A stretch of DNA of 64,000 nt from a plasmid: the NCBI RefSeq assembly GCF_988243305.1, contig NZ_OZ547138.1. The stretch is one strand, 5' to 3'. The first letter of the stretch is position 1. Each line of letters starts with the position of its first letter. Made by a program: the position numbers. Shown here piece by piece: positions 12,001 to 15,000 of the stretch.

Positions 12001-15000
12001 AGGATGCACTGAAACACCGTCGTGCGAAAGCAGCAGCCAGTAAGCGCGCCAGACGCCTGAAGAAACTGCCTGCCGACCAGCAGATTCATGAGATGGCAGA
12101 GTATCTCAGGAAGCGTCTGCCGCCGGATGAAGCCTATTTTTGTTCCGATGACCATCTGAAGCGACTGGCCATCAGGGAGTTGCGTCAGCTTGAACTGACG
12201 CTGGCTGCCCCGCCACCGCACTAGACAGTACCATTCCCTCAGCACTGAATCATCGCCAGCCCCTCCGGGGCTTTCGGCGCTGGTTCCGCTCAGCCCAAAA
12301 TCCGCAGTAATCATCTTAAATCCCCTCAGAGGGGCATATCTGTCCATAAAACCACGCATCAGTCATCAGAACGTGGCCACGTTGTTTCAGTTATCCACAT
12401 AAATCCGCAAACAAAGAACTTTGAGAAGCTGCAAGCCTAAAACAGCAAACCTGCAATATAGTCTTAACCCCATTATTTAATCCCCTGCGTTGCTTCGCCG
12501 CAGGGAAAGTCTTTATCTCTGAAACCACTGTGAATAAATACAAAGAGGCCTTCGCTTGCAGCGGCCAAGGCCGCGCCGCTCAGAATCTAAAAGCACCTCC
12601 CACGCTGACGCGCGGGCCCCGGAACCTCACCGTTCTGAGACCACAGCAAAAAAAAATCAGGAATAAAAACACCACATAAATGCAGCACCGTGCCCACCCC
12701 TCATAACTGAAAAGCGAGGCCGCCCCCGCCCAAAGGGCGGGAACAACATCGCTTTTAATTATGAATGTTGTAACTACATTATCATCGCTGTCAGTCTTCT
12801 GGCTGGATGTTCTCAGTACACGCTCGTAAGCGGCCCTGACGGCCCGCTAACGCGGAGATACGCCCCGACTTCGGGTAAACCCTCGTCGGGACCACTCCGA
12901 CCGCGCACAGAAACTGTCTCATGGCTGAAAGCGGGTATGGCTTAGCAGGGCTGGGGATGGGTAAGGTGAAATCTATCAATCAGTACCGGCTGACGCCGGG
13001 CTTCGGCGGTTTTACTCCGGTATCACATGTAACCACAGCGTGCCGCCTTCCATGCCGCTGGCGCGGCATATCCTGGTGACGATATCTGAATCGTTATATA
13101 CTGTGTATATACGTAGTAATGACGAGGTGATAAATGGCACAGGTTAATATGAGTTTAAGAATCGACGCTGAACTGAAGGATGCTTTTATGGCCGCTGCAA
13201 AAAGCATGGACCGTAATGGCTCTCAGTTAATTCGGGATTTTATGCGCCAGACCGTTGAACGGCAGCATAATACCTGGTTCCGTGACCAGGTTGAGGCAGG
13301 ACGTCAGCAACTCGAGCGCGGCGATGTGCTTCCCCATGACATGGTCGAATCTTCCGCTGCTGCATGGCGGGATGAAATGAGCAGGAAGGTTGCCGGTAAA
13401 TGATGGAGATATTCTGGACCATGCTGGCCAGCCAGGACAGGAAGCGCATTCGTAAGTACATTGCGGAGCAGAACCTGATGGCCGCCATTGAACTGGACGA
13501 ACGGATTGGTTATTCAGCCAGCAGCCTGGCCGGGCAGCCGTATAAAGGCCGCAACGGTCGTGTGGAAGGTACCCGGGAACTGGTTATTCACCCGCATTTT
13601 GTTCTGGTTTATGAGGTCGACAGCCAGTGGGGAAAAGTGTATATCCTGCGCGTGTTGCATACTGCACAGAAGTGGCCATAGAGGGGCTGTCCGGATATAA
13701 GGAAAGGAGATGCAATAACCATGAATAATGATGAGCTGGCCACCAGACGTGCGCAGGCGATTGCCGAAGACAGGTGTTTCTCGAAAGGACGTTTGCGCGA
13801 TGAATTCAGAATGAAACCAGCCCCCGGTGCTGAGCCGGTTAAGTGGTATAAAAACACTTATGGTGGCAGGTTCGCTGTATACCGAATTGCAGACTGTGTT
13901 CCGATGCGTGAGAAACGCCCTCTGACGAGTAAACAACAGCTGGCTGGCCAGCGACTTTCCGTTTTATCCAGACTTAACAGCACCAGTGGCCGGATGGCAC
14001 GGCAGGCATATGACTGGCTGAGTCTGGCACCGCTCTTTCTGGATACTGAAACGACAGGACTGGATAATACCGCGGAAGCCCTGGAAATCGGCCTGACCGA
14101 TGCGGCCGGTCAGGTGGTATTTGAAACCAGGCTGAAGCCCACGGTCGCCATCGGGGCGCAGGCCGCCGCTGTGCATGGTATCAGCGAGCAGGCTCTCTGC
14201 GGCGCACCATCATGGACAGATGTGGCGCGGCAACTGCGTCATGCAATCGGGGACCGACCAGTAATTATCTTTAATGCCCGGTTCGACATCCGCATTCTGA
14301 AACAGACTGCTGCCGCACATAGCGATCCGGCTGACTGGCTGGAAGAACTGACGGTATATTGTGCGATGGAGCTGGCTGCAGGATATTATGGGGCCACCAA
14401 CCGCTATGGCACGATTTCACTGGCCTGTGCTGCCAGTCAGGCCGGACTGACCTGGGAAGGGCAGGCACACTCAGCGATCGCCGACGCACGGATGACGGCA
14501 GGGGTGGTAAACGCTATTGCTGCATATCATCTGGAACTGCTGCAGGAACAGGCACGGCTGAAAATCTGACCGCCTGGCCTGTATACCGCAATCATTTACG
14601 TTATCCAGACGTAAATCCGCCGCTTGTTGCTGTCAGCATGTTAATGCTAATGTATGTGTACATTAGCATTAATGAGGGATGATATGTGAGAGACAAAACC
14701 AGGGAGGCCATGCGGCTTTTTTTAGGCGGCAGGTGCTACACGGCTGAAAAACTTGAAAAGGATTATCTGGCTGAAGTGGCTAATTACAGTAACGACCGCT
14801 GGGAAGCACCGCAACGTGCCTCACGCCTGGCTGCCAGCGTAAAGCGTTACAAGACATCAGAAATGCTGCGCTTTATTTTTGCTACCATTGCCTACGATCC
14901 CGATCCAGATTTAACCCCGCTAACTGTGAGACGTTTGTGCAAGGCATTGTTCGGCAGAACCGGAAGCCAGTGGCTGGTTGTTGAAGTTTTTGGGGAGAAG

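Follow-up and report, generated by a model that had tools for sequence, protein, structure and literature searches.

What does the densely structured, non-coding DNA between rep and yacA do in this plasmid? We analyzed it within a stretch of 64,000 nucleotides (hereafter the 64-kb window), which was 100% identical to an IncI-gamma/K1 plasmid record. The rep gene lies at 11193-12224, with its stop at 12224. Upstream of it are a repZ pseudoknot and an antisense-RNA control region, as in other I-complex plasmids, where a repY leader, a pseudoknot and an antisense RNA govern the rep gene, and the Rfam family PK-repZ matched the rep leader (11030-11180, E = 1.4e-40). A profile search of genome contigs with the initiator alignment returned only two near-identical loci. 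Over its whole length, the 909-bp rep–yacA gap was 94.7% identical to positions 1487-2391 of the IncI1 archetype R64, and 12765-13000 was identical to R64. The first-pass annotation had read 12258-12930 as probably the origin, with possible single-strand initiation signals. This was essentially right, in view of the identity to the region downstream of R64 repZ and of the I-complex ori signature described below, and all the features that it had described there were found in place. We consider, with a probability of about 0.8, that the stretch is the cis-acting replication region of an I-complex (IncI-gamma/K1) plasmid and that it comprises two modules. Module A (12225 to about 12520) consists of the CIS followed by ori. 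Module B (about 12692-13125) consists of a long hairpin, a Ter site, a GC-rich junction and a primase start motif. The region is already known as the classical origin region of IncI and IncF resistance plasmids, and nothing in it is new as a finding.

Module A follows the I-complex pattern (ColIb-P9/R64 of IncI1 and pMU720 of IncB) and starts directly after rep. The CIS, i.e. the plus-strand spacer from the rep stop codon to the DnaA box (12225-12390), is exactly 166 bp, which we take to be the CIS length of ColIb-P9 and pMU720 as well. Its conservation was about 95-97% in R64 and further plasmids of the I-complex; IncFII-type replicons have another sequence in its place. Terminator-like hairpins had been described after the rep stop. 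One of them, at 12253-12283 within the CIS, is strong (RNA dG -17.9 kcal/mol, z = -2.65, 0/200 shuffles as good), whereas the second, CCCCUCAGAGGGG at 12322-12336, is weak (z = -0.37). The perfect DnaA box that had been noticed, TTATCCACA at 12391-12399 on the plus strand, bounds ori on the left. The 64 kb has just one other perfect copy, and the box was invariant in all seven aligned I-complex and K2/Z sequences. Beside it, at 12402-12456, there are four plus-strand AANCNGCAA motifs (starts at 12402, 12426, 12440 and 12448), which are putative initiator (RepA) boxes. All four fall on the same strand in a stretch of 55 bp; in the rest of the 64 kb there are four others, counting both strands. 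A putative AT-rich unwinding element follows (12457-12482) and includes TCTTAA at 12461-12466. AANCNGCAA is reportedly the RepA box of IncB pMU720, and TCTTAA the essential 6-mer of its ori (Betteridge et al. 2003/2004). The differences from the I-complex origins were limited to point changes of a few percent and to the other incompatibility subtype (I-gamma/K1).

To the right of the unwinding element is an ori-proximal hairpin, CCCTGCG...CGCAGGG (12483-12505, dG -13.3, z = -2.84). The minimal ori would span only about 12391-12520. The region as a whole was correctly called an origin, but the GC dyads, which had been included in it, belong to a separate module that is common to IncFII R100. 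The GC content was 64% in 12830-12930 and 41.5% in 12391-12520, compared with 53% in the whole window. Another hairpin, at 12599-12616 on the minus strand, was a terminator-like call. In the alignment with R100 it was kept through an altered inner stem. Its A.C mismatch on the plus strand is a G.T wobble on the minus strand. The structure of 12540-12625 was not above the level of shuffled sequences.

Module B (12692-13125) shared about 92-95% identity with IncFII R100 downstream of oriR. That segment carries ter sites and was found by transposon mapping to be needed for maintenance (PMC4398462). Two transposon-mapping studies of IncI plasmids have no resolution over the rep–yacA non-coding stretch. 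The module shares the Ter site and its orientation, the hairpins and the start motif with the "repA4 region" of R1/R100 (terRL/terRR plus a primase G site). However, R100 has an inverted pair of Ter sites, and the window keeps only the equivalent of terRR, as terRL lies in R100-specific DNA. In the window, the module is joined to a CIS and ori unrelated to those of R100, and the initiators are only distantly related (23% identity). The downstream genes differ too, being yacAB in the window and tir-pemIK in R100. Serving two origins that are unrelated to each other, this cassette for terminus and priming behaves like a portable module; we propose that module B is a portable fork-management cassette, used by the IncFII plasmids R1 and R100 as well. 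It was present in at least 5000 plasmid records, and no copy was found in the phage collection. Divergent homologues, about 74-78% identical, were found in Yersinia, Klebsiella, Enterobacter, Pantoea and Serratia, and they showed covariation. Rule-based annotation of the Ter site and of the primase start motif is possible in thousands of plasmids.

The Ter site, a predicted Tus-binding site, is ATTATGAATGTTGTAACTACATT at 12758-12780 on the plus strand. It matched GNRNGTTGTAACKA exactly and corresponds to terRR of R100/R1. Its core, GAATGTTGTAACTA at 12763-12776, had no mismatches to GNRNGTTGTAACKA, G6 included, and this was the only site in the window with one mismatch or fewer to the core consensus. 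The position was identical to that of the plus-strand Ter of R100. The core was kept in all 12 divergent homologues, with one mismatch in two of them. The consensus, including G6, is also that of the chromosomal TerA-J sites of Escherichia coli, from which the polarity can be inferred likewise. TerB blocks clockwise forks. In strand sense the plasmid site corresponds to TerB, which lies upstream of tus in MG1655, and it is oriented against forks that move in the plus direction (from rep to yacA). This polarity agrees with R1, in which both ter sites are located between oriR and the leading-strand start (PMC10331603). Several other Ter-like words were rejected. A second GTTGTAAC, at 54366, is a chance match that departs from the consensus at G6 and positions 18-19, and the inverted words at 12740 and 13029 lacked G6 and each had two mismatches in the core.

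The flank of the Ter site is part of a conserved structure. Long hairpin 1 (12700-12765, minus strand) has an inner stem CCCGCCC/GGGCGGG followed by A/T-tract stems. In its outer stem, Ter positions 1-8 (12758-12765, including C6) are paired with 12700-12707. The Ter flank thus forms one arm of a conserved, covarying hairpin; we know of no such flank hairpin at chromosomal Ter sites. Hairpin 1 folded well on both strands (minus strand, z = -5.9; plus strand, z = -5.2), and seven of its pairs had changed on both sides. Among the alignment cells of this hairpin, 96.1% were paired on the minus strand and 72.5% on the plus strand. The same bias was seen over the whole structure. When 12690-13020 was folded, z was -4.7 for the minus strand and -3.1 for the plus strand, and 0/100 shuffles were as good on either strand. 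The minus strand folded more stably in all 17 sequences, and the consensus-fold energy was -72.5 for the minus strand and -49.9 for the plus strand. Pairing in the alignment reached 97.6% of cells for the minus strand and 83.2% for the plus strand. The former value was 92.8 ± 0.5% in shuffled alignments (0/500 as high) and 39-56% when the partners were slid. The first-pass annotation had called for single-strand folding and for structure that is conserved. The structure was above shuffles and stronger on the minus strand, and its pairs were kept and covaried across genera, with nine double-changed pairs in total.

The nested GC dyads that had been placed at about 12830-12930 were confirmed. 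CCCGAC (12864-12869) pairs with GTCGGG (12885-12890) and encloses GGG-TAAA-CCC (12873-12882). On the minus strand they fold as a three-way junction (12816-12908), in which a closing stem (12908-12902/12822-12816) carries arm A (12899-12853), which holds these dyads, and arm B (12852-12825). As single-stranded DNA, the minus strand of 12815-12925 had a folding energy of -27.2 kcal/mol (z = -2.84, 3/200 shuffles as good) and the plus strand one of -20.9 kcal/mol (z = -1.40). Across genera, 22 of the 29 junction pairs were invariant and two covaried. The covariation here says little, because most of the junction stems never vary. The unpaired bases of the junction were as invariant as its stems, which indicates sequence recognition, and one loop position, 12838, showed all four bases among the homologues.

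A candidate G4-type primase start motif, CCTGCTAAGCC, is located at 12939-12949 on the minus strand, with its CTG at 12948-12946 and a predicted primer start at A12947, running rightwards. It was the single match in 64 kb, where 0.07 were expected, and it is on the expected strand. The motif is identical to the start-site motif of phage alpha3 and one base away from that of G4, ACTGCAAAGCC, where the primer is annotated; the consensus of the module B family, CTGCAAAGCCA, is identical to the G4 motif. In the plus-strand sense, the CAGG that includes the CTG was invariant in all 12 homologues. The motif sits just beyond the right end of 12258-12930; it, the Ter site and the four initiator-box motifs beside the DnaA box had gone unremarked in the first reading. 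The window thus shares with the G4/alpha3 complementary-strand origins, which are primed by primase only, a start motif, a CTG on the template strand and hairpin-rich surroundings. Unlike G4, however, it has no stem-loop abutting the CTG. Two overlapping conserved hairpins, CCGGC/GCCGG and CGCCG/CGGCG (12986-13008, minus strand), lie 5′ of the motif on the template, and in Serratia the first pair had changed from C-G to G-C. They are the nearest hairpins at 38 nt from the CTG, and their segment did not fold better than shuffles (z = -0.9). The strongest structure, the junction at 12908-12816, lies 3′ of the CTG on the template. Outside the start motif, the alignment score with the G4 origin was no better than that of shuffles, and blastn-short found only chance words. 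Plasmid G sites are reported to be similar to those of phages only close to the start. A direct alignment of the module with the RepFIA/ssiA region of F gave chance-level matches only. We also rejected two other primase CTGs, in GTACTGA at 12816-12814 (abutting the junction) and 12983-12981. GTACTGA occurs only five times on that strand in the 64 kb, and neither of these two was kept in the divergent homologues.

An alternative is that the hairpins work as RNA and not as DNA. In that case, hairpin 1 would serve as an intrinsic terminator protecting ori from leftward (and also rightward) transcription, and the junction would be part of a small structured minus-strand RNA. It is true that hairpin 1 is preceded by an A-tract and followed by a T-tract, as in bidirectional terminators, and that terminator-like calls were made at 12747-12719 and 12616-12599 (minus strand) and at 12994-13008 (plus strand), with four found and 1.1 expected. 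A minus-strand bias that depends on G.U pairs fits a minus-strand RNA as well as it fits DNA. However, the small structured RNA that had been considered for this region found no support. There was no sigma-70-like promoter placed to drive a minus-strand RNA, and Rfam 15 matched no family over 12225-13133 except for a chance miRNA match on hairpin 1 (26 bits, gathering threshold 96). The covarying outer stem of hairpin 1 lies past the T-tract and would be superfluous in a terminator, and the invariant unpaired bases of the junction point to recognition of its sequence. We therefore regard the RNA explanation as unlikely, and its terminator part is compatible with a replication role of module B rather than an alternative to it. 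Somewhat less probable still is that the GC dyads form, on the plus strand, a PriA-dependent (phiX174-type) primosome assembly site that loads the lagging-strand primosome. The plus strand is able to form both arms and has AAGCGG, a putative common hexamer of such sites, at 12828 and 12929. This hexamer, however, occurs 20 times per strand in the window, and its second copy (12929) was not kept in the divergent homologues, which read TTAGCGGG. The plus strand was also the less stable one in 17/17 sequences, and its fold of the dyads, given above, was not above shuffles.

That the stretch encodes small proteins seems highly improbable to us. Two short ORFs do exist on the plus strand, one of 22 codons (12761-12829), which the first-pass annotation had singled out as a hydrophobic mini-ORF, and one of 52 codons (12921-13079), which is annotated as hypothetical in some RefSeq records. 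In the first 33 or so codons of the latter (to CCG/CCT at 13017-13019), all five differences between the window and R100 were synonymous. But this ORF overlaps the primase start motif and the conserved hairpins, which can explain the conservation; its start codon was lost in 3/12 homologues, it had no alignable reading frame in the divergent set, and it had no Pfam match. The ATG of the 22-codon ORF is simply positions 4-6 of the Ter site. The ORF runs through the most variable part of module B (12777-12815) and was frameshifted by a 2-bp AG insertion in three of the 12 homologues. No conserved ORF was found in the region, and neither the 22- nor the 52-codon ORF should be called a gene in annotation.

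We return to the two-module replication region. From the sequence identities, from the motifs and the way they are oriented, and from conservation, covariation and strand-biased folding, we infer protein binding, the priming site and the direction of replication. Replication is most likely unidirectional, primed on the minus strand and ended at Ter. The CIS would keep the initiator acting in cis. Host DnaA would bind its perfect box and the plasmid initiator the four adjacent boxes, and the neighboring AT-rich TCTTAA segment would then open. A helicase loaded at ori would unwind rightwards, and the minus strand, as the leading-strand template, would stay single-stranded and fold into the long hairpin and the three-way junction. 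Primase would start the leading strand at the CTG of CCTGCTAAGCC, and replication would then proceed one way around the plasmid. The returning fork would be stopped by Tus at Ter, about 170 bp before the 5′ end of its starting strand, and over-replication would be prevented. The junction may be part of, or accessory to, the primase signal. This is the weakest link of the model, because the junction is 3′ of the CTG on the template, where a G4-like signal would not need it. It should also be noted that the initiating helicase, on its way from ori to the priming site, would meet a Ter site that blocks rightward forks, and its passage is unexplained by this model.

A variant of the model addresses hairpin 1. 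Since the pairing of the Ter flank is kept by covariation across genera, and on the minus strand only, we suggest, as an unlikely but conceivable reading, that hairpin 1 might be a switch on Ter. At initiation there would be no leading strand behind the helicase, and the minus strand could fold and hide C6, which Tus must capture to lock, in the outer stem; this would let the helicase pass the otherwise wrong-facing Ter. When the fork came back complete after one round, no single strand would be left free, and the fork would be locked. Under the same variant, and with as little confidence, the three-way junction might be a separate single-strand element recognized by a protein and not merely a part of the primase signal. 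The conserved minus-strand hairpin, including the Ter flank, is the one point here that is perhaps worth an experiment.

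The non-coding region downstream of rep (12258-12930) is already known. The 909-bp gap between the rep stop (12224) and yacA (13134) had a 100% match to an E. coli plasmid typed as IncI-gamma/K1. Compared with the equivalent gap of R64, the IncI1 archetype, it showed 94.7% identity overall, and 12765-13000 was identical. Upstream of rep, Rfam gave a match to the repZ pseudoknot region (E = 1.4e-40) and a weak CopA-like antisense match. From the similarity to R64 and the repZ pseudoknot, the region belongs to the best-studied plasmid origin regions. The relationship of the initiator to IncFII RepA is distant (23% identity, with a borderline Pfam match). 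Alignment with R100 (IncFII) divided the gap into two parts. The left part (12225-~12690) was restricted to I-complex plasmids. The right part (~12692-13125, hereafter module B) had ~92-95% identity to R100, in the segment that follows oriR, and was present in at least 5000 plasmid records, mostly from Escherichia, Klebsiella, Salmonella and Shigella. In one IncK2/Z-typed plasmid (NZ_CP141235.1), the segment in common with the window started further left, at ~12590. The initiator of this plasmid carries the annotation IncFII-family RepA (873 bp), and the CIS is unlike that of the window, yet the DnaA box is shared; this arrangement of sequences suggests recombination within the origin region.

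The left part carries the ori signature of the I-complex. The perfect DnaA box claimed after rep in the first-pass annotation was present at 12391-12399 and was invariant across all I-complex sequences aligned. Its distance from the rep stop was exactly 166 bp, which we take to be the length of CIS in ColIb-P9 and pMU720. Hairpins had also been noticed after the rep stop. The first (12253-12283) was strong (RNA dG -17.9, z -2.65), and the second (12322-12336) was not (z -0.37). Directly after the DnaA box, a 55-bp stretch has four copies of AANCNGCAA on a single strand (12402, 12426, 12440 and 12448); the remaining 64 kb had only four further copies, both strands counted. Presumably, it is the RepA-box motif of IncB pMU720. 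The cluster is followed by TCTTAA (12461-12466), assumed here to be the essential 6-mer within the region that opens in the same plasmid. The gap is richest in AT here, with a GC content of 41.5% over 12391-12520. Both the RepA box and the essential TCTTAA of pMU720 were reportedly described by Betteridge et al. (J Bacteriol 2003 and 2004). Replication of pMU720 requires DnaA and a DnaA box (review, PMC3155836). The window has a second perfect DnaA box at 33483-33491 and an inverted one-mismatch box at 33510-33518. GGTTACCCAGGCCGTGCCGGCACGTTAACCGGGCTGCATCCGATGCAAGTGTGTCGCTGTCG adjoins these boxes within 33483-33590 and is similar to the Frpo-type hairpins (single-strand promoter/ssi) that occur in the leading regions of plasmids.

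In module B, the nested GC dyads reported at ~12830-12930 were present as described. As single-stranded DNA, 12815-12925 had a folding energy of -27.2 kcal/mol (z -2.84) for the minus strand and -20.9 (z -1.40) for the plus strand. RNAalifold, applied to a minus-strand alignment of 17 distinct sequences, gave a three-way junction (12906-12820) and a long hairpin (12765-12700). On the minus strand, 97.6% of the cells were in a standard pair, against 92.8 ± 0.5% in shuffles (0 of 500 reached the observed value) and 39-56% when the partners were slid as a control. The same structure was 83.2% paired on the plus strand. The difference was larger for the middle helix of the long hairpin (minus 91.8%, plus 25.9%) and for the stem formed by the Ter flank (95.5% and 60.6%). 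With DNA parameters, mean dG was -25.7 on the minus and -18.9 on the plus strand for the junction, and -19.1 and -16.3 for the long hairpin; the consensus fold energies were -72.5 and -49.9. In both elements, the minus strand folded better in 17 of 17 sequences. Double-sided changes were found in nine pairs (42 cells), which none of 500 shuffles reached, and seven of these pairs fall in the long hairpin. Among the 29 pairs of the junction, 22 were invariant and two covaried (CG:9/GC:8 and AU/GC/GU). The unpaired junction bases were as invariant as the rest, which points to recognition by sequence as well as by shape.

The IncFII-like replicon of Yersinia pestis pCD1 has module B at ~74% identity, with both Ter sites. 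Using the pCD1 module as a query, we reached further divergent versions (74-78% identical to it) on plasmids of Klebsiella, Enterobacter, Pantoea, Serratia, Morganella and Salmonella. Their alignment showed four conserved islands: the long hairpin with Ter; a nearly invariant stretch of ~50 nt (ACACGCyCGTAAGCGGCCCTnnnGGCCCGCTAACGCGGAGATACGCCCCG) that, together with GTCGnGACCACTCCGAC, flanks a variable inner hairpin; AGCGGGTATGGCTTwGCAGGG; and an overlapping hairpin pair at 12986-13008.

The Ter site at 12758-12780 (plus strand) reads ATTATGAATGTTGTAACTACATT. The core is an exact match to the Tus-Ter consensus GNRNGTTGTAACKA, and no other site in the window comes within one mismatch of it; by our own arithmetic, ~0.03 exact matches are expected by chance. 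The ATG of the 22-codon mini-ORF previously flagged at 12761 is positions 4-6 of Ter. In three of 12 close homologues, a 2-bp insertion shifts the frame of this ORF, and conservation across module B is lowest in the ORF body (12777-12815). In E. coli MG1655, the plus-strand sequence of TerB, immediately upstream of tus, is AATAAGTATGTTGTAACTAAAGT, and TerB blocks clockwise forks, i.e. those moving toward higher coordinates. As the window Ter lies in the TerB sense, its predicted polarity is to stop forks moving from rep to yacA. R100 has inverted Ter sites (minus-strand 45078-45085 and plus-strand 45216-45223), and such a pair forms a small fork trap in both R100 and pCD1, whereas the I-complex plasmids examined, including the window (compared region ~12625-12650), have only the equivalent of the right-hand, plus-strand site. 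C6 of Ter is the base captured by Tus. In the outer stem of the long hairpin, Ter positions 1-8, including C6, are paired with 12700-12707; this pairing covaries across genera (CG/UA/UG and CG/AU/UG) and works on the minus strand only. In R1, two ter sites separate the minimal origin from the point at which the leading strand starts; terRL halts the counter-clockwise fork at once, and terRR halts the clockwise fork after a full circuit (PMC10331603). The polarity predicted for the window Ter agrees with this account of terRR. In pEC958, no transposon insertions were seen in the region that holds these sites, which the authors describe as ter-containing (PMC4398462). A Ter predicted to block rightward forks sits between ori and the putative priming site, and the initiating helicase must get past it. 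That the long hairpin hides C6 at initiation is speculation, and we consider it improbable.

No general similarity to the G4 oric was found in the region. On the minus strand, 12949-12939 reads CCTGCTAAGCC, starting from an invariant plus-strand CAGG (12946-12949). The aligned start site of alpha3 has the identical sequence CCTGCTAAGCC, and the Pantoea and E. cloacae homologues have CTGCAAAGCCA, identical to G4, in which the annotated primer start is the T of CTG in ACTGCAAAGCC. CCTGCWAAGCC had a single occurrence in the 64 kb of the window, against 0.07 expected, and its position and strand were those anticipated. Two CTGs in a repeated GTACTGA were rejected as priming sites because they were not conserved. 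A primer from A12947 would be predicted to extend rightwards, which fits the orientation of Ter. Under rightward replication, the minus strand would be the leading-strand template and, in the R1 model, its stretch from ori to the priming site would be replicated only when the round ends. The R100 motif lies ~370-400 bp beyond the estimated oriR, in line with the R1 G site, which Masai and Arai (1989) reportedly placed ~400 bp downstream of oriR. The resemblance between plasmid and phage G sites is reportedly confined to the vicinity of the start (Tanaka et al. 1994), and two ssi signals were reported on an R1 derivative (Bahk et al. 1988).

All features listed in the first-pass annotation were present, and its proposal of an origin with single-strand initiation signals is supported, subject to the corrections given here. 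The most economical reading places the dyads within the known ssi region of R1/R100/ColIb-P9. Their position is between Ter and the primase start and, on the template, 3′ of the CTG, where they would be dispensable for a simple G4-like signal. They could be a G-site domain, the second ssi signal or the stable fold of a stretch that remains single-stranded during each round. We put the probability of a direct role in priming at about 0.55; the remainder is divided among accessory or protective functions, an RNA and a PriA site. The small structured RNA suggested by the first-pass annotation gained no support, as neither a promoter nor an Rfam match was found in the region, although the long hairpin is terminator-like on the minus strand and may also terminate transcription. 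The folding bias toward the minus strand in 17/17 sequences speaks against a plus-strand primosome site of the PriA type.

Frameshifts and lost start codons among the homologues disfavour the coding of small proteins. Some RefSeq plasmids have a hypothetical protein (e.g. WP_000841008.1) annotated at a 52-codon ORF (12921-13079, plus strand), and the five differences from R100 within its first ~33 codons are all synonymous. However, its start codon is gone in three of 12 close homologues, and it overlaps the primase-start motif and conserved hairpins.

At 13095-13120, just upstream of yacA-yacB (RHH antitoxin/ParE-family toxin), a palindrome (TACTGTGTATATA/TATATACGTAGTA) is probably the operator and promoter of this operon. 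The same stretch occurs in R100, where a different gene, tir, comes next. Module B was also found with no rep annotated upstream in the flank examined, in K. pneumoniae p3, E. hormaechei and Salmonella. The first two copies are still joined to yacA(B); that of K. pneumoniae has lost the CTG adjoining the junction, and that of E. hormaechei lies downstream of an IS5-family element. These rep-less copies resemble either relics or a cassette that can move.
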